From: a virus
Lineage: Duplodnaviria; Heunggongvirae; Uroviricota; Caudoviricetes
Strand: one strand, 5' to 3'
Virus record (IMG/VR): IMGVR_UViG_2695420889_000008
Length of the DNA: 10,752 nt
The position numbers and the translations under genes were made by a program. The notes beneath the pieces are model-generated. The model had not been told where the DNA came from. It searched no databases and saw only the letters and a program-made list of their open reading frames with translations. Shown one piece after another: positions 1-8,423 of the stretch (its first letter is position 1; every line of letters begins with the position of its first letter).

Positions 1-102
1 AAAACTAATAGTGCCATGTGCAATTTTTAAGATTTTGTTATTAATTGTGGTCGCACCTTCCTTTCTGTGTACTTTCCGTATAGCTCACAGGATTCTGGGT
101 AC

Positions 103-125
103 AAAAAAACCCGCGCATCGGCGGG
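103..125 (-). terminator. Rho-independent terminator downstream of the Q-like gene (candidate tR'-like)
   Basis: On the minus strand: CCCGC-cgatgc-GCGGG hairpin (110-125) followed directly by T7 (plus-strand A-run 103-109). Lies ~110 nt past the stop of the last minus-strand gene. Confidence 0.6.
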
Positions 126-173
126 TTCTTAAATCTTATCAACGGTAGACATACAAAGCCCATCGTTGGGAAA

Positions 174-202
174 ATCTTATCCATATTTTTTGAAAAATGC
201 AA
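174..202 (-). promoter_or_regulatory. Candidate PR'-like late promoter
   Basis: Minus strand: -35 TTGCAT (197-202), 17-bp spacer, -10 TAAGAT (174-179). Would give a ~60-nt transcript ending at the 103-125 terminator, as for a Q-modifiable short late transcript. Position and motif only. Confidence 0.3.
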
Positions 203-233
203 GCATCATGTCGTCATCTTCGGCGAAAACCAT

Positions 234-986
234 TTATCTTGTCACCTTTCTCAATTGTATCTCTGCATATGCTTCTTCCTGCCAGCACTTTGTAACCAGT
301 TTATCAATGACATCTGCATATCCTTTGTACCACTGATAATCCGTCAGGTCTGGTACCAGCTTCTGGACATGAAGCCGCGCCAGTGTGGTTGGTAAACGGC
401 TAAACCGGTTTCCATTGCAACGCCCACAAACCTTATAAACAGGCGTGCCATGAAGCCGGGTTCTTTTTTCATCCAGGACAATACCTTTACCCTTGCACCC
501 TCTGCATGCTGTGCTGACTTCTCCCTTACCATGACAATGCTGACATAGTTCCTTCACCCACTCTTCCTTAATAACAGATTCCCCGCTTCTGGAGTGTTTC
601 ACCACCTCGCGCAATACATTATGAAATCCAGTACCAGCACAATGCTCACAGCGAGCCTTACTTGCCGCAGACCTGGAATAATCAGCAAAGGCAAAATTCA
701 CAAGGTAAGGAATGATCTGTAGCCGGGTTTCTTCACTCAATTTATTCAATGTCGGGTTATCCAGTGCCATCGCGTAATTGAGCAGACCTTCAATCGCAAA
801 CTGAGGATCCTGAACACCAACTTTTGCCAGGAATAAAGCAAACCCAAGCGTTGCTTTTGACTGCACCATCCCCTGCGCAGCCATCACATCCGTAATTGTT
901 AAACCACCAGAGCCTGTCGCCGGTGCGTCATCGCTCAGTTTTGGAGATTTCGGGGAGTAATATTTCGGTAAGGCTTCAAGGTTCAT
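234..986 (-). CDS. Putative late-gene antiterminator Q-like protein with four DnaJ-type CxxCxGxG zinc-finger repeats
   Basis: 250-aa ORF starting MNLEALPKYYSPK, with GGAG Shine-Dalgarno 7 nt upstream of the ATG at 984-986. Cys repeats RCEHCAGTG, CQHCHGKG, CRGCKGKG, CGRCNGN. Last gene of the rightward operon, immediately before a promoter plus terminator. Family assignment is from position and recollection, not a search. Confidence 0.5.
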   Translation of the reverse strand: MNLEALPKYYSPKSPKLSDDAPATGSGGLTITDVMAAQGMVQSKATLGFALFLAKVGVQDPQFAIEGLLNYAMALDNPTLNKLSEETRLQIIPYLVNFAFADYSRSAASKARCEHCAGTGFHNVLREVVKHSRSGESVIKEEWVKELCQHCHGKGEVSTACRGCKGKGIVLDEKRTRLHGTPVYKVCGRCNGNRFSRLPTTLARLHVQKLVPDLTDYQWYKGYADVIDKLVTKCWQEEAYAEIQLRKVTR

Positions 987-999
987 GCTCGTTCTCCAC

Positions 1000-1989
1000 T
1001 TACGCCAGTACGCCAATTGCCAGCGCACGATCGATAAAACGAAATATCAGCTCCAGCTGAGAGCCATACTTCTCTTCAAATGCCACGGTATCCGCATGCA
1101 GCTCGTCGTGATGCTTTCTGCACAAAGGCAACACAAAAAGGTCATGCGCTTTTGTACCCATTCCACACTGACCGTGGCCTATCAGGTGGTGGGGATCATC
1201 AGCGGGCTTTCCACAACATGCACACGGCTGTGTCTTAACCCAGCGCGTGTACTTTTCATTAACCCAGCGGCGACGTTTTGGGCGTAACATAAAAGACTCC
1301 GGCGACTCCGGATCCACTTTCAGCGCCAGCACCTTTTTCGCTTTATCCTGGATGATGCTGGTGGCAGGAACCGAAGGCACAAGGTCACTTTCCCGGGTGA
1401 CAGACGGCACAACAGGCTTCGGTAATCTCAGTGCCTTACGGGCTGCACTTTCCGGTAAGGCATCCGCCAGGTCATTACGAATCAGCCACCAGCACAGTTC
1501 CGGCATTGTCACAACGTGACTGTCATCAAAACCGAGATCCCGACGCACAACAGACAACACCCAGCGGGTACAGTTATCCGTTGCCATTGATTCCAGCCGT
1601 TCCGTGAACTGATCGCGCAGCTGGTTATCGCAGTGCCAGCACAGACGGATTGCGCCCGGCGTGTGTCGCATTGTGGTCATGTTCTCGCTGTGCCAGTCGG
1701 AATGAGGCCACTGGCAACCTTTTTCACGAAGTAACCAGCGTTCAAGACATTCCACTCCACCAGCACGACGAATCACTGCCTCATTGCGGAACACGGCCCG
1801 AACGGCAGGATCATCCGCCAGCGGTTGTGATGCCGCCGGAACGGCACCACTGGCGAAAGATGAATAACGTTCCGGCTCAGGCTCCAGCAGGACACGCCCC
1901 TGCATAAACAGGGGCATCAGCTCTGAACCGGGCCTGAACAATACGATCCCCATACGCGGGGCAATTTCAGGGGTCAGTAGCGCTCTCAC
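1000..1989 (-). CDS. Nin-region protein with C-terminal HNH-like Cys/His zinc-binding domain (possibly DUF968/NinG-like)
   Basis: ~329-aa ORF. C-terminus CACCGKPADDPHHLIGHG...LCRKHHDELH resembles a beta-beta-alpha-metal nuclease motif. Likely GTG start at 1987-1989 preceded by GAGG (the ORF track begins at 1995). Start is uncertain. Confidence 0.55.
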   Translation of the reverse strand: MRALLTPEIAPRMGIVLFRPGSELMPLFMQGRVLLEPEPERYSSFASGAVPAASQPLADDPAVRAVFRNEAVIRRAGGVECLERWLLREKGCQWPHSDWHSENMTTMRHTPGAIRLCWHCDNQLRDQFTERLESMATDNCTRWVLSVVRRDLGFDDSHVVTMPELCWWLIRNDLADALPESAARKALRLPKPVVPSVTRESDLVPSVPATSIIQDKAKKVLALKVDPESPESFMLRPKRRRWVNEKYTRWVKTQPCACCGKPADDPHHLIGHGQCGMGTKAHDLFVLPLCRKHHDELHADTVAFEEKYGSQLELIFRFIDRALAIGVLA

Positions 1990-1996
1990 GGTCACC

Positions 1997-2806
1997 TCAA
2001 TGAACGGTATCGAGCAGCTTTAACAGCTCAGGGAACCGGGATTCGAAGAAATGCGGCTGCGTCTCGCGCGGATTTGCGGGACTGGTGATGTTCTTGCCGA
2101 ACATGCAGCCTTTCGCCGTCAGCGACCAGAATTTTTTGATGTTGTTAATCGCAGTGCGGCTGTATCGTTCACGTTGTTCAACGATCCCCAGCTTCGCCAT
2201 CTGGTGATATGCCTGATTAGCTGTCAGGCGGATACCATACTGCTTCAGCAGTGCACTCAGTGACAGCGTGGGGCGGCTTGAGCCATCAGGCGCGTCAGCA
2301 GGAGCATCAATGGCATAGCGCGGTGCCAGATTCGGTAAGCCAACAGCCTCCTGGAGTTTCTGACAGGCACCAAGCACTGAAGAGTTAGACAGGTTTAACT
2401 CCCGGCGCATAAAGTCCAGCAGAATCACGCCAGCCTGCATCTTGTCAGCAGCCTGCCCGGATAATTTTTCCGATGCGCTGGTTACCATATCGAAAGTACG
2501 GATCACCTTCAGATGGAATGACGGGCTGATCCACATTGCATAGGCATACACCAGTTCTTTGCAGACATACGTCCCCTGGTTATTTCCGCCATTAATAACG
2601 CTAACTGGTTGATTCTTTTCCAGAGGCGGAATTCCACCCTCGGTGAAAAGTTGTTCAATCAATTCACAGGTTTGCTTATTGGAGAGCCAGTATTTCGGGC
2701 GTTTTTTTTGTTCTCCCCCGGCTGCCCTGTGCAGATCGTTCAGGCTGTAACGCCCATAAGCATCACGACGAACTTCAATACCATCAATGACCATCAGATT
2801 ATTCAT
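1997..2806 (-). CDS. KilA-N domain protein (antirepressor-like)
   Basis: 269-aa ORF. N-terminus MNNLMVIDGIEVRRDAYGRYSLNDLHRAAGG...KYWLSNKQTCELI...GTYVCKELVYAYAMWISPSFHLKVI matches the KilA-N/APSES-type pattern. GAGGAG Shine-Dalgarno 8 nt upstream. Confidence 0.7.
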   Translation of the reverse strand: MNNLMVIDGIEVRRDAYGRYSLNDLHRAAGGEQKKRPKYWLSNKQTCELIEQLFTEGGIPPLEKNQPVSVINGGNNQGTYVCKELVYAYAMWISPSFHLKVIRTFDMVTSASEKLSGQAADKMQAGVILLDFMRRELNLSNSSVLGACQKLQEAVGLPNLAPRYAIDAPADAPDGSSRPTLSLSALLKQYGIRLTANQAYHQMAKLGIVEQRERYSRTAINNIKKFWSLTAKGCMFGKNITSPANPRETQPHFFESRFPELLKLLDTVH

Positions 2807-2825: not shown

Positions 2826-3215
2826 TCAGGCGGCTGCACCCGCCGGTTTCTCATACTTACTGATAGTGATCTCGACCTTCCCTTTCGGGATAACCGGTCC
2901 CCACTCCACCAGCATTCTTTTCACCTGGCTGTCGTCTTCCCACACACCCGCGTGGGTCAGGGCGTCAAACAGCGCCTTGTTATAGTTGTCCAGATCGCGG
3001 ATCCGGTTATCCGGAGGAAACAACACGATCTCCACTGAAGCAGGTGCCGACGTTGGTTTCGGCAGACGACGTAACTGCTCAACTATTGCTGCGCACGCCG
3101 CGCTCTGAAATTTTCGCCCCGCCTCGCTTATCAGGCTCTTACCAGCAAATGCCCCTTTGTTGGGGTGTCGCCAGTACGTGTTCACGCTGGGCGGGAAAGG
3201 CAGGATCAGCTTCAT
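2826..3215 (-). CDS. rusA: Holliday-junction resolvase RusA
   Basis: 129-aa ORF with RusA hallmarks: LPFPPSVNTYWRH and acidic catalytic cluster RIRDLDNYNKALFDALTHAGVWEDDSQV. ATGA overlap with the upstream gene. Confidence 0.85.
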   Translation of the reverse strand: MKLILPFPPSVNTYWRHPNKGAFAGKSLISEAGRKFQSAACAAIVEQLRRLPKPTSAPASVEIVLFPPDNRIRDLDNYNKALFDALTHAGVWEDDSQVKRMLVEWGPVIPKGKVEITISKYEKPAGAAA

Positions 3216-3538
3216 ACTTTCAGGCCTCTCTCATGTAACCAGTGAGTTGCACGCAGCCTTGCGTTTTCCTCACCGGCAAGCAGTGAGCGGATAATCCCGA
3301 CCGCCTCGCTGTCGTCGTCCTTCACCGCGGTATGAAGCGTGATCCCCCGGGCCACACCACGCTTTATCGTGATGACGCCTTTTTTCTCCAGTGCGCGAAG
3401 ATGCTCCACCGCTGCATTCACCGAACGGTATCCCAGCATGGTTGCCACCTCCTGATTGGTTGGCGGGAAGCCACGTTCTTTCTGATAAGAAATCAGCATA
3501 TCCAGCACCTGCTGCTGGCATTGAGTTAACGTCGTCAT
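3212..3538 (-). CDS. Orphan LexA-like N-terminal DNA-binding-domain protein (no S24 peptidase domain)
   Basis: 108-aa ORF. LTQCQQQVLDMLISYQKERGFPPTNQEVATMLGYRSVNAAVEHLRALEKKGVITIKRGVARGITL aligns by eye to the LexA winged-helix domain, including a near-identical recognition helix (SVNAAVEHLRAL vs LexA SPNAAEEHLKAL). No Ser/Lys peptidase domain. ATGA overlap with the Dam gene. Confidence 0.7.
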   Translation of the reverse strand: MTTLTQCQQQVLDMLISYQKERGFPPTNQEVATMLGYRSVNAAVEHLRALEKKGVITIKRGVARGITLHTAVKDDDSEAVGIIRSLLAGEENARLRATHWLHERGLKV

Positions 3539-4188
3539 GCCGCCATCTCCCTGACCAGTTTTTCCGCCTGCTGGCGAACCTGCGCCAGAAACGCCTCACC
3601 ACATGCCTCAAGTTCATCGCGCCCGATGTAGCTGATTGCCGGTCCCTTCCAGGTCTTGTCAAAAACAGCAATAGCACCAGCGAAAAAAGCTCCTGTCGGC
3701 ACCTGCTTCTCGTCCTTCGGGATAAACCAGGCAGGCAGTTCAAAACCAATACGCCCGCGAATAAAAGCAATATGGTCCGCATCTTCCGGCCACCACACTT
3801 CGCTGGTGGCAGCTTTGATCAGGAAAACATAGCGCCCGCCCTTATCACGCATGGAACTGGCATGTTTCATGATGTAACGCATGCCGGTGATGTATTGCCC
3901 CTCATGCTGACTGGCGCGGCTGTATGGGGGATTACCAAAGGCAGCACCTTTAAGCTCCGCAAGACGTTCTGACCAGTCATGCGCCAGCGCGTTATCTTCC
4001 GCCGTGTAATACGCGGCACATTTGGCGTTATCACCGTCAGTAAACAGATCCAGAACAAACGGGCCAAACAGGGTGTTAATTCCCCAGAAAATGTTGTCCG
4101 GCGTGCGCCACTGATCGCCCACTTCCTTCAGTTCATGGGCTGGTTTGTTCCGCAGTTCCACCAGCGCCTGGCAATATTTATTACTCAT
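3535..4188 (-). CDS. Phage Dam-type DNA N6-adenine methyltransferase
   Basis: Catalytic NPPY motif in FGNPPYSRA; N-terminus MSNKYCQALVELRNKPAHELKEVGDQWRTPDNIFW typical of phage Dam family. Start placed at ATG 4186-4188 (G-rich Shine-Dalgarno, 1-nt overlap with upstream stop) rather than the GTG at 4221. Confidence 0.75.
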   Translation of the reverse strand: MSNKYCQALVELRNKPAHELKEVGDQWRTPDNIFWGINTLFGPFVLDLFTDGDNAKCAAYYTAEDNALAHDWSERLAELKGAAFGNPPYSRASQHEGQYITGMRYIMKHASSMRDKGGRYVFLIKAATSEVWWPEDADHIAFIRGRIGFELPAWFIPKDEKQVPTGAFFAGAIAVFDKTWKGPAISYIGRDELEACGEAFLAQVRQQAEKLVREMAA

Positions 4189-4682
4189 TAAGCCCCCACG
4201 TAATTCCCTGACAGATACCACTCTTCACCCGATGCAGCGCGCTTGCTGCTTTTCCGTAAGCACCGCTCACGACGCGCCAGAAAATTGTTTCGTTCTGGCT
4301 GGGAGTGGCTTTCACGGAATGCCGCCATCCACACCGTTGCAGCACGACGGTATAAGCCCCTGGACTCCAGTTCTTCAGCCTGGCGGGTCAGGCACAAAAT
4401 CACCCGGGGGTCGTTAGTGCCGACATAGAAATTGCGCACAGGTCTGGTTTCACGAACTGGTTGCGGTTCCGATTCCTGCAAAACCTCAGTCTGGCGCGGG
4501 AAATGTCTGCGAGTATCCCCTTCACAACGGTGAGCCACACGCCCACTCTGACGTAACTTGCTTGCTGACTGCAGAACGCGCTGTCGTGAGTAACCTGCAA
4601 AAGCATCCGCAATGTCTCCGGAAGCACACCCCGGATGGGCTTCAATGAATTTCTGAACGTCATTTAACAGACTCATGATCAC
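4188..4682 (-). CDS. Hypothetical early protein with PerC-like C-terminal region
   Basis: 164-aa ORF; ATGA overlap with the O-like gene stop. Segment LESRGLYRRAATVWMAAF resembles the PerC-family core; recollection only. Confidence 0.5.
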   Translation of the reverse strand: MIMSLLNDVQKFIEAHPGCASGDIADAFAGYSRQRVLQSASKLRQSGRVAHRCEGDTRRHFPRQTEVLQESEPQPVRETRPVRNFYVGTNDPRVILCLTRQAEELESRGLYRRAATVWMAAFRESHSQPERNNFLARRERCLRKSSKRAASGEEWYLSGNYVGA

Positions 4683-5497: not shown

Positions 5498-5718
5498 GCT
5501 GCACCTCCGAGATGCTTCATGTTTTTTCCGGAGCGAAAGGCTATGAGCGGCATACTGACGCGGTAATTACGACCCAGCGGTTCACAAATCACCTTCTGAC
5601 ATTCACGGTCAACCAGGCTAACACGTAGAACATGCCCTGCAGGCGTGGTGTACCACTGACCCGGGCGAGGACAACGGAAAGTTTGATTGGTAAACCGTTT
5701 GAAAATATTTCGGATCAT
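5494..5718 (-). CDS. Hypothetical small protein (74 aa)
   Basis: ORF bracketed by ATGA overlaps on both sides (5715-5718 and 5494-5497), which argues for translation; no recognisable motif. Confidence 0.45.
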   Translation of the reverse strand: MIRNIFKRFTNQTFRCPRPGQWYTTPAGHVLRVSLVDRECQKVICEPLGRNYRVSMPLIAFRSGKNMKHLGGAA

Positions 5719-6866
5719 TTGCGCCCCCTTACCTCTGAAGAGTTCAGCGACGAATGAATAAGACGGGCAAGAAATGCCGCATCGTTAATTCGGTCATACA
5801 GACTTACAGCCAGCGGTGATTCAGCTTTTTCCAGCATGGGATAAAGCTGCTGCAACCAGACCTGATGAATTGATGAAATGTAGGAATAGAGAACGCTGGC
5901 GTTATGTGCAACGTCACTCGGTACAGCGAGCTTTGAAAGCTGTTTCTCCATCTGGTTAAAGGCATTGATGTATGCCTCTTTGAACTGGGCAGCACGTTTA
6001 CCCGTGAAACCCATAGCAAGAAACGCAAAGCCGTCGCGGGTTATTTGATAGCAAGGTAGTTTGCGGCCTGTGCAATCGGTGTAATCACTCACCGAAAAAT
6101 TGCGGGCAGTGAATGATGCGGAGCATTCAAGCGTGCGGATCTTTTTCAGAACATCGTCATGACGTTTGGAGAAGAAGTTGGCAACAGCCAGGGATGAAGT
6201 AACAGCCTGACCATCAACGATGGCAATTTCGGGTTGAGTGAGGGTTGGGATCGTAGCCATGATGGCAGCCTCTTTGGTGATTTTTAATAACTCACCACCA
6301 AGGCTTTCCACGACCTTATTGGTGGTGAGACGTACAGGGGTGGAAATACCGGTCACCAAAGAACCCGGCCCAACCGAAGTTGGCCCTGCACGCCCCACCA
6401 TAATTTGGGCGTAATGCTGCTCATGACACAAAAAAACCGCAAGAGCGCGGTTGTGCGCTTTGGTGAATTCCGGGTTTCCACGCCCGGCACCCGCTTTATA
6501 AGGTGCCTGAACAGTGTAACGTCCCGGAATGGCAGAATCAATGTGCTGGTGGTCCTTCACACTCAACAAAATCACGCCTGAATTTCCACAAAGGACTAAA
6601 GCACTCATGCGGGTAGTCTTTGCGAAGATAGATAACGCGCTGTGTTTCTGGCTCCCAACGAATAACATGGACATAAAGCCCTCTTCCGTCACGAAACCAG
6701 CGGTTAAGTTCCTGCACAACTCGCCCCCCACAGTCAGGTAAAGTTCTCTGTGGTTACTTACAGCCAGGTGATTTGGTAATCTGCATTCATGCCGTAACAA
6801 CAGGTGTTCAGCGACACTGACCACCAGCTGTTGCGACAAACGGTTATTTGCCGTTAAACTGTTCAT
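5715..6866 (-). CDS. Rha-family phage regulatory protein, C-terminal 181 aa, with ~200-aa in-frame N-terminal extension of unknown function
   Basis: Rha signature VTSSLAVANFFSKRHDDVLKKIRTL...ITRDGFAFLAMGFTGKRAAQFKEAYINAFNQME lies in the C-terminal half. The open frame runs 383 codons from an ATG (6864-6866) that overlaps the CII-like stop (ATGA). A second start at 6258-6260 has an AGAGG Shine-Dalgarno and would give a stand-alone Rha protein (5715-6260). Which start is used is unresolved. Confidence 0.55.
   Translation of the reverse strand: MNSLTANNRLSQQLVVSVAEHLLLRHECRLPNHLAVSNHRELYLTVGGELCRNLTAGFVTEEGFMSMLFVGSQKHSALSIFAKTTRMSALVLCGNSGVILLSVKDHQHIDSAIPGRYTVQAPYKAGAGRGNPEFTKAHNRALAVFLCHEQHYAQIMVGRAGPTSVGPGSLVTGISTPVRLTTNKVVESLGGELLKITKEAAIMATIPTLTQPEIAIVDGQAVTSSLAVANFFSKRHDDVLKKIRTLECSASFTARNFSVSDYTDCTGRKLPCYQITRDGFAFLAMGFTGKRAAQFKEAYINAFNQMEKQLSKLAVPSDVAHNASVLYSYISSIHQVWLQQLYPMLEKAESPLAVSLYDRINDAAFLARLIHSSLNSSEVRGRK
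6430..6452 (-). terminator. Intragenic terminator-like hairpin inside the N-terminal extension of the Rha ORF
   Basis: Minus strand: ACCGC-gctctt-GCGGT followed by T6-7. Short stem, so weak. Confidence 0.3.
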
Positions 6867-7426
6867 GCGTTAGTTTCTCCACAGACACAAAACGCCACGA
6901 CGCCCGGAGCTGCACACTCGCGGGCGTCACTCTTTTCTGGAGCGCAAAAGATTTTGTAGACCAGTGCTGCATGCTCCTGGAGCTTCGAAATTGACAGATA
7001 CAACTCATCATTAATTGCTGTCTGCTCGTGTGGCTCCACGACCCCATCTTCGATTGCCGAACGAATCTGCTTTGAGTAATTCCCGATCTGTTCGATGACT
7101 TCCAGCAGGCGCTGGTTTATATCGGCGTTCTCTACTTCCTCAATTTCAGGAAGCGATACGAACACCCCACCAGCAGACTGTGCGACAGCATCCGCAATGT
7201 AGTGAGTGCCAGCCGCGCGCTGTAAAACCATTGCCCATCCCAGCGGGAAAATCTGATCGCCATCGGCACGAAGGCGGTTAAATAATGCGTTCTCTGTTAC
7301 ATCCAGCCAGTCAGCTGCTTCAGCGTAACCACCCGGCAACGCTGCGATAGTTTTTCTGACAGCTTTCACGTACCACTCAGGCTGTTTTTCTACTTTCCAG
7401 TGATACTTACCCACGGTTAGCCTCAT
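6863..7426 (-). CDS. CII-like early regulatory protein (tentative)
   Basis: 187-aa ORF immediately downstream of the Cro-like gene, stop overlapping the next start. Family guess is from position and recollection only; weak Shine-Dalgarno. Confidence 0.4.
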   Translation of the reverse strand: MRLTVGKYHWKVEKQPEWYVKAVRKTIAALPGGYAEAADWLDVTENALFNRLRADGDQIFPLGWAMVLQRAAGTHYIADAVAQSAGGVFVSLPEIEEVENADINQRLLEVIEQIGNYSKQIRSAIEDGVVEPHEQTAINDELYLSISKLQEHAALVYKIFCAPEKSDARECAAPGVVAFCVCGETNA

Positions 7427-7457
7427 CGTTCTGTGGTTAAAAATTGAAGGTGTTCTG

Positions 7458-7658
7458 TTAATCTTTCGGATAGATATCCGGTCTTAAGTCAGATTTCGTA
7501 ATTGCACCTGACGTGCATTGCTCAAGTTTTTTAGCCAGCACAAAACTGGCTTTTTTATAACCATTGAAAACCAGCCGTAAGTAGCCTGGTGTTGAGCCAA
7601 CTTTTCCGGCCAACTCGCCCTGCTGTTCTTTGGTTAAAGAGTCCCAATACGCTTTCAT
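7458..7658 (-). CDS. Cro-like HTH repressor
   Basis: 66-aa ORF starting MKAYWDSLTKEQQGELAGKVG, with GGAGG Shine-Dalgarno 10 nt upstream. Divergent from the CI-like gene across an operator-rich spacer. The ORF-track start at 7682 has no Shine-Dalgarno and was rejected. Confidence 0.6.
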   Translation of the reverse strand: MKAYWDSLTKEQQGELAGKVGSTPGYLRLVFNGYKKASFVLAKKLEQCTSGAITKSDLRPDIYPKD

Positions 7659-7664
7659 ACAATA

Positions 7665-7731
7665 TGTACCTCCAATATACATATTACATGATTAATATGA
7701 ACCTTCAAGATACTTGTACCTTATCGGTACA
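7665..7731. promoter_or_regulatory. OR-like operator region between the divergent Cro-like and CI-like genes
   Basis: Two 17-bp sites: TGTACC-tccaa-TATACA (7665-7681) and TGTACC-ttatc-GGTACA (7715-7731). Candidate leaderless PRM: TTGTAC (7714-7719), 17-bp spacer, TTTAAT (7737-7742), start near the cI ATG at 7749. Candidate PR on the minus strand: TTGAAG (7703-7708) and TAATAT (7681-7686). Confidence 0.5.
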
Positions 7732-7748
7732 AAGGTTTTAATTTCTTT

Positions 7749-8423
7749 ATGAAAACAGTCCATGACATCCGGCGGTCTAACGCCAGAAAACTGAGAGATG
7801 GTGTTGGCGGGAATTCTTCCTTTGCCACCATGATTGATCGCGAGCCAACCCAGACCAGCAGGTTTATGGGAGATGGTGCTACTAAAAATATCGGTGACAG
7901 CATGGCACGGCACATCGAAAAATGTTTCGACCTGCCTGTCGGATGGCTTGATCAAGAACACCAGACCACGAACATCACAAAAAAACCTGATGTTTCAATC
8001 ACTAACAAACAAATAACGTTAGTCCCTGTCATATCATGGGTACAGGCCGGAGCATGGAAAGAAGTTGGCTATTCTGAGGTTGATTTGAGCACAGCAGAAA
8101 CTTATCCCTGCCCTGTACCCTGTGGCGAAATGACTTATATCTTGCGGGTGATTGGTGATTCAATGATTGATGAGTACCGCCCGGGAGACATGATTTTTGT
8201 TGATCCCGAAGTCCCTGCCTGCCACGGTGACGACGTTATTGCATTGATGCACGATACAGGCGAAACCACCTTCAAGCGATTGATAGAAGATGGAACACAG
8301 CGTTATCTCAAAGCATTAAACCCAAACTGGCCTGAGCCTTACATTAAGATTAACGGTAATTGCTCTATAATTGGTACAGTAATTTTCTCAGGAAAACCAA
8401 GAAGATACAAAATAAAGGCCTAA
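7749..8423 (+). CDS. CI/DicA-type prophage repressor with LexA-like S24 autopeptidase domain
   Basis: 224-aa ORF. C-terminal domain has the S24 motifs GDSM (catalytic Ser), GDMIFVD and TFKRL (catalytic Lys). N-terminal domain ends in the VGWLD motif typical of C2/CI-type DNA-binding domains. Confidence 0.85.
   Translation: MKTVHDIRRSNARKLRDGVGGNSSFATMIDREPTQTSRFMGDGATKNIGDSMARHIEKCFDLPVGWLDQEHQTTNITKKPDVSITNKQITLVPVISWVQAGAWKEVGYSEVDLSTAETYPCPVPCGEMTYILRVIGDSMIDEYRPGDMIFVDPEVPACHGDDVIALMHDTGETTFKRLIEDGTQRYLKALNPNWPEPYIKINGNCSIIGTVIFSGKPRRYKIKA

Follow-up and report, generated by a model that had tools for sequence, protein, structure and literature searches.

An Escherichia coli lambdoid prophage Q antiterminator with a four-motif, putatively two-zinc arm, and its predicted pR'-tR' late switch

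The Q antiterminator of phage lambda is made up of a helical body that includes a helix-turn-helix (residues 61-113 and 153-207), a zinc-ribbon arm (residues 114-152) that touches positions 11-13 of the Q-binding element, and an N-terminal segment that refolds with NusA to give a nozzle at the RNA exit channel (Yin et al, 2022, PMC9388147). The arm contains two CxxCxGxG motifs and one zinc ion, and the gene lies ahead of the lysis genes. At lambda pR' the elements are TTGACT, a 17-nt spacer, TAAATT, TGACTC and AACGATGGG, and the Q-binding element sits between the -35 and the -10. The related Q of phi80 has reportedly been studied genetically by Guo and Roberts (2004), in work on the DNA-binding regions of the lambda and phi80 proteins. 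In the phi80 record (gp17; JX871397, 269 aa) a Q site directly follows the -35 and is succeeded by an AACGxTGGG pause element and a nearby terminator. A third relative, ydfT (quuQ) of the K-12 prophage Qin, encodes 250 residues annotated as a putative antitermination protein Q; it resides in a defective prophage and its annotated function is likewise putative. Here we describe a Q gene of this last type at one end of a 10,752-nucleotide stretch of viral DNA (IMG/VR record IMGVR_UViG_2695420889_000008), referred to below as the window.

The window covers the immunity and early-right region of a lambdoid prophage, here in leftward orientation. It matches the chromosome of E. coli O145:H28 RM12581 at 100% identity over its full length, apart from the last 126 bases and an IS600 insertion in RM12581. 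Over positions 1-1100 the sequence is also shared, at 100% identity, by many chromosomes of enterohaemorrhagic-type E. coli (O26, O103, O145) and by the Stx1 phage Lys8385Vzw, which outside this segment is a mosaic relative with 94.5-99% identity. The genes are as follows:

7749-8423, plus strand, cI-type repressor with an S24 peptidase domain
7458-7682, minus strand, cro-like gene
6863-7426, minus strand, CII-type regulator
5715-6866, minus strand, Ash/Rha protein, 383 aa
4679-5497, minus strand, replication protein
4188-4682, minus strand, PerC-family protein
3535-4221, minus strand, Dam methylase
3212-3538, minus strand, LexA DNA-binding domain only, 108 aa
2826-3215, minus strand, RusA
1997-2806, minus strand, KilA-N protein
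1000-1995, minus strand, DUF968 protein
234-986, minus strand, Q antiterminator, 250 aa

This order is consistent with a lambdoid early operon, and sequence comparison together with modelling places Q as the final gene of the rightward early operon, which here runs leftward from the cI/cro region at about 7450-8420. Three of the other genes may be noted. The reading frame at 3212-3538 (minus strand) has a full-length PF01726 LexA DNA-binding domain without the S24 cleavage domain, and its product could possibly be a phage-borne, non-cleavable LexA-like repressor. A homologue of PerC-family regulators lies within the early operon, and the RM12581 prophage has a second PerC-family gene past its lysis genes (L026 7066-7380). 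In the 383-residue frame at 5715-6866, Ash covers residues 117-213 and Rha residues 223-308, while the first 116 residues match no family.

The Q gene and its parts are:

997-994, minus strand, Shine-Dalgarno sequence GGAG, 7 nt 5' of the Q ATG, read from the sequence
986 to 234, minus strand, Q gene of the lambda Q family, ydfT/QuuQ type, ATG at 986 and stop TAA at 236-234, 250 aa
822-986, minus strand, N-terminal 55 residues, homologous by alignment to the lambda Q nozzle segment
402-662, minus strand, arm with four CxxCxGxG motifs, residues 109-195, putatively zinc-binding
507-650, minus strand, motif 1, variable beta-hairpin and motif 2, residues 113-160, roughly the 47-residue segment absent from lambda Q

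The start was assigned to ATG 986 because GGAG lies 7 nt upstream and because homologues, lambda Q among them, share this methionine; a GTG at 1028, also on the list of the ORF finder, was rejected on the same alignment. A preliminary description, made from the letters of the window, had called the product Q-like, and the profile search bears this out. The protein scores 176.8 bits against a cut-off of 26.7 for PF03589, the lambda Q family, matches phrog_127 from end to end (E = 3.6e-107) and matches the lambda Q chains in the PDB (4mo1, 7ubj-7ubn) with E = 1.5e-37. The same Pfam scan gave no match at E ≤ 0.01 to the phage 21 (PF06530) or phage 82 (PF06323) Q families (accessions from PMC9388147), and no NCBIfam Q model matches the 250-residue protein. 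Pairwise alignment with lambda Q gives 42% identity overall, rising to 30 of 55 positions (55%) in the N-terminal segment, where G39 is retained. This segment has low pLDDT in the structure model, as expected since it is disordered when free. The helical body with a helix-turn-helix and the zinc-ribbon arm that mark the lambda Q fold are both found, and every feature tested places the protein in the lambda Q family. Many E. coli genomes and named phages already carry the sequence under the annotation antitermination protein Q (ydfT/QuuQ type), and viable phages with 97-100% identical Q include Lys8385Vzw, SfV, mEp460, Ayreon and the Stx2c phages. The kind of switch is textbook knowledge, and no novelty is claimed for the gene, the family or the promoter-pause-terminator layout.

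The arm contains four CxxCxGx[G/R] motifs with their cysteine pairs at C113/C116, C148/C151, C161/C164 and C187/C190, the last motif ending in arginine rather than glycine. About 0.003 such motifs would be expected by chance from the composition of the protein. The eight cysteines and the motif glycines are invariant in 28 of 28 homologues (65-97% identity), while between motifs 1 and 2 the hairpin is variable in both sequence and length. The four DnaJ-type repeats of the preliminary description, at residues 113, 148, 161 and 187, are therefore real. Eight invariant cysteines would predict two zinc ions where lambda Q has one, paired either in tandem (motifs 1 with 2 and 3 with 4) or nested as in DnaJ (1 with 4 and 2 with 3). 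In the alignment with lambda Q the gap falls at residues 112-158, so that the 47 extra residues enter precisely at the start of the arm. HMMER aligns the two proteins in two stretches, and the first lambda motif pairs with motif 1 in one of them and with motif 3 in the other. A search for internal duplication, by BLASTP of one half of the arm against the other, returned only a 10-residue match that was not significant (E = 0.075). Probably the extra zinc module serves to extend or brace the arm structurally; alternatively it may make an additional contact.

The preliminary description had likened these repeats to the DnaJ cysteine-rich domain rather than to a single zinc finger of lambda Q. 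The likeness holds at the level of the motif, where PF00684 scores a borderline 31.3 bits, just under its cut-off of 32.7, and to a modest degree for the modelled fold. The spacing between motifs differs: roughly 27, 5 and 18 residues in this arm and about 9, 14 and 6 in E. coli DnaJ. In the DnaJ domain (PF00684; 1exk, BSD2, anti-TRAP) the motifs form a nested two-zinc hairpin, 1 with 4 and 2 with 3. The contrast with lambda stands in so far as there are four motifs here, but they are not an oddity of this gene, being a common form of the family that is also present in phi80 Q. Nor is the arm unlike that of lambda in kind, for two of these motifs make up the lambda zinc ribbon, which itself weakly matches DnaJ. 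A link to DnaJ was noted earlier for a Q-like phage protein (PMC5313236).

By sequence, the closest relatives of this Q are ydfT/quuQ of K-12 Qin and the Q proteins of SfV, mEp460, Ayreon and the Stx2c phages. The ydfT product is about 93% identical in a K-12-like chromosome (L005) and its gene is preceded by the DUF968 gene ydfU, just as the window Q is preceded by a DUF968 gene. Closest in architecture is phi80 Q, which is of the same family and has the same four-motif arm, with about 40% identity; its motif 3 is CxC rather than CxxC, and 19 more residues lie in its hairpin between motifs 1 and 2. Lambda Q shares the family, the fold, the N-terminal nozzle segment, the C-terminus and the gene position ahead of the lysis genes, but lacks the 47 residues.

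Downstream of the Q stop the preliminary description had placed a candidate promoter at 174-202 and a terminator at 103-125. Comparison with lambda and phi80 allows these to be read as pR' and tR' with the following boundaries:

202-197, minus strand, pR' -35 TTGCAT, the hexamer annotated as -35 in phi80, its TTG invariant in 15 loci
196-180, minus strand, 17-nt spacer with the presumed Q-binding element TTTTCAAAAAATATGGA, at the position of the phi80 Q site
179-174, minus strand, pR' -10 TAAGAT, its first two positions, T and A, invariant in 15 loci
173-168, minus strand, TTTCCC between the -10 and the pause element
167-159, minus strand, putative sigma-dependent pause element AACGATGGG (AACGAT then GGG), identical to that of lambda pR'
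127-103, minus strand, intrinsic terminator tR', GC stem, 6-nt loop and seven T

The reality of the promoter rests on its homology with the pR' of lambda and phi80, and transcription would start at about 167. The spacing is that of lambda, with AACGATGGG 6 nt past the -10 as in lambda pR'; this element has a single copy in the window, where chance would give 0.13. The spacer differs from that of lambda at 7 of 17 positions, and the lambda -35-like TTGACT is not conserved, TTTTCC standing in its place. With phi80 pR' the -35 TTGCAT and the 17-nt spacer are shared and the phi80 -10 is annotated as TAGATT, but the annotated Q site is TCGCGGA in phi80 and TTTCAAA here, so the DNA specificities of the two Q proteins probably differ. 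A 2018 study of pR' regions in Stx prophages did not specifically treat the ydfT/QuuQ type of Q (PMC6266700).

Conservation of this region was examined in 21 fetched loci with relatives of the 250-residue Q, 14 of which had downstream regions that were aligned with that of the window to give 15 loci. The 14 come from about ten genera (Escherichia, Enterobacter, Mangrovibacter, Kosakonia, Phytobacter, Atlantibacter, Scandinavium, Buttiauxella and Entomohabitans among them). Downstream of Q orthologues with 43-97% identity, the -35, the spacer blocks TTCAAAAA and TGG, the -10, AACGATGGGC and the following TTGTATGTCTACCGTT are all conserved, AACGATGGG is nearly invariant, and the first 20-30 nt past the Q stop have diverged. 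The Q-dependent late-switch layout anticipated in the preliminary description thus recurs in 14 further loci and, as judged by alignment, is collinear with lambda and phi80. Just 5' of the -35 a separate block, CGACATGATGC (203-213, minus strand), is conserved across genera, unlike the diverged sequence that separates it from the Q stop; in lambda, CATGAT occupies almost this position. The block could belong to the promoter or serve as a protein contact.

The stem of tR' is formed by CCCGC at 125-121 and GCGGG at 114-110, is extended by A-U pairs to 127-108 and is followed by the T run at 109-103. When folded, the 67-nt transcript from +1 gives two hairpins with -21.7 kcal/mol and z = -2.97, and an 81-nt stretch gives z = -3.87. 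A GC hairpin with a T run is found at the matching place in 15 of 15 aligned loci, and a terminator is annotated at the same place in the record of phage Ayreon. The terminated RNA is predicted to run from about 167 to about 103, some 65 nt, as against about 194 nt for the terminated pR' RNA of lambda. The RNA (103-167, minus strand) would be of the same class as lambda 6S RNA and the StxS sRNA, the latter described in the Stx phages of Sakai (PMC7547250). The first 29 nt or so of the presumed transcript (140-168, minus strand; CAACGAUGGGC...GUCUACCGUUG) could form a hairpin whose sequence is conserved in the 15 loci, and lambda has a similar inverted repeat, CAACGA...TCGTTG, at the corresponding place. 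For this 5' hairpin and the terminator, covariation did not exceed that of shuffled controls (85.5% of cells paired across the 15 loci, 84.7% in the shuffles), and two pairs had changed on both sides; the 5' hairpin is therefore conserved in sequence and its structure is only putative. Searching Rfam gave nothing near a gathering score, with weak terminator-like matches to the Leu and Trp leaders and STnc370.

The window ends about 100 nt past the terminator, and the late genes are known from matching public genomes. No lysis genes could be seen within the window when the switch was first proposed; they lie beyond its leftward end in two genomes that are 100% identical over 1-1100. In Lys8385Vzw, stx1A begins 568 bp past the Q stop and is followed by stx1B, holin S and lysozyme. 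In the RM12581 prophage the order is tRNA-Ile, tRNA-Arg, tRNA-Arg, esterase, holin, lysozyme, Rz and terminase, and in Ayreon holin and lysin follow the annotated terminator. The two findings that would have told against a Q switch, no similarity to a Q family and no late or lysis genes downstream of the terminator, were thus both contradicted. At about 94-101 the similarity to Ayreon, mEp460 and the Stx2c phages stops within a few bases of the T run, as at a mosaic junction. Because homology between phages ends just past the terminator, Q, pR' and tR' appear to travel as one cassette in front of different late regions. Annotated tRNA genes directly follow the terminator in RM12581 (L026 2360-2611), and by eye the same holds among distant relatives (L023 about 3425-3520, Entomohabitans); tRNA genes at such a position are usual for Stx-type phages.

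It is very probable that this locus serves as the late-gene switch in a lambdoid prophage from enterohaemorrhagic-type E. coli, with Q followed by homologues of the lambda and phi80 pR' and tR'. DNA binding, pausing, antitermination and zinc content are all inferred here by homology with lambda. RNA polymerase would start constitutively at pR', at about 167, and would pause after some 16 nt at AACGAT (167-162), presumably because region 2 of sigma70 rebinds this -10-like sequence. Without Q, transcription would terminate at tR' (127-103) to give the RNA of about 65 nt. Once Q had accumulated, its helix-turn-helix body and zinc arm would bind the site between the -35 and the -10; the protein would then contact the paused polymerase, and its N-terminal 40-60 residues together with NusA would form the nozzle at the RNA exit channel. 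The modified polymerase would pass tR' into the late region, reaching tRNA genes or stx1AB and then holin, lysozyme and the structural genes. Whether a Q protein has one zinc or two, its promoter, Q site and pause element keep the same spacing, and therefore the extra module needs no longer site between the -35 and the -10. In the lambda loading complex the -35-like TTGACT is bound by sigma region 4; with TTTTCC at this place, that detail of loading may differ here.

Could the four-motif domain instead be a DnaJ-like chaperone or thiol-disulfide module, with a function other than or beyond antitermination? A precomputed database table does list PF00684 for most homologues, yet the score for this protein falls below the cut-off, its Pfam scan contains neither a J domain nor the C-terminal substrate-binding domains, and the arm is embedded in a DNA-binding antiterminator; identity as a DnaJ protein was rejected on these grounds. 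The NCBIfam matches to DnaJ and anti-TRAP are far below threshold, with the DnaJ models at 15-27 bits against cut-offs of 338-585. The chance that such a function applies is close to negligible. That the true late promoter lies elsewhere and 174-202 is a mere relic of homology is only slightly less improbable. The -35 is weak and the consensus scanner is silent at 174-202, but the -35, the spacer blocks, the -10 and the pause element are conserved together across genera next to post-stop sequence that has diverged, and their spacing equals that of lambda and phi80. The sole promoter hit of the scanner, 146-175 on the plus strand, is within chance (one found, 1.9 expected). Its silence was judged a limit of the scanner and not taken as absence of either element, since the -35 fits the consensus at only three of six positions and, in the case of the terminator, greedy extension of the stem probably consumed the T run.

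An inactive remnant of a cryptic prophage, in which the promoter-terminator unit switches nothing, seems improbable too, if somewhat less so. The same type of gene is found in the cryptic prophage Qin of K-12, pseudogene copies occur in two of the fetched loci (L020, L022), many database entries are truncated, and RM12581, the best match to the full window, has IS600 elsewhere in its prophage. Against this, the reading frame is intact and keeps all the residues invariant in the family, and the promoter, the pause element and the terminator are likewise intact, with no difference from their counterparts in an isolated Stx1 phage. Nearly identical Q proteins are present in plaque-forming SfV, mEp460 and Ayreon, and holin, lysozyme and terminase genes lie downstream in RM12581. 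A working late switch controlled by Q remains the reading that we favour.

The distribution of the arm across the lambda Q family was examined in 39 sequences, comprising 36 homologues of at least 185 residues, the window protein, lambda Q and phi80 Q. At least three motifs were present in 33 of them and two or fewer in 6, motif 3 often being CxC, and all full-length close homologues have four. By this count four motifs are the prevailing form of the arm among the family members sampled, a sample that was seeded with a four-motif query. Family-wide (P0121-P0270; lambda L003 87-710; phi80 L025 5138-5947) the hairpin that separates motif 1 from motif 2 has between about 6 and about 60 residues. 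In a neighbour-joining tree, computed from the body only and without bootstrap, lambda is nested among four-motif proteins; lambda Q is 49% identical to one homologue (P0144), 47.5% to phi80 Q and 27.6% to a divergent two-motif clade. As lambda is so nested, the consensus of the phrog_127 profile is the long form and four motifs are the majority, the one-zinc arm of lambda probably arose by secondary loss. The whole proposal, that the two-zinc, DnaJ-like arm is both the ancestral and the majority state and the one-zinc arm of lambda a secondary reduction, is put forward as an unlikely but arguable one.

All solved Q-lambda structures show a one-zinc arm, while most of the sampled members carry the predicted two-zinc arm, for whose role no study was found in the accessible literature. 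Were the proposal true, the extra module of motif 1, variable hairpin and motif 2 may contact something that is absent from the lambda complexes, the candidates being the conserved block CGACATGATGC (203-213) or a part of RNA polymerase, and the loading of Q in most members of the family would differ in detail from that of textbook lambda. In an Stx1 phage the Q-pR'-tR' module immediately precedes stx1AB, and Stx2c phages have a Q that is nearly identical; the module would therefore be one of the switches that control the release of Shiga toxin.
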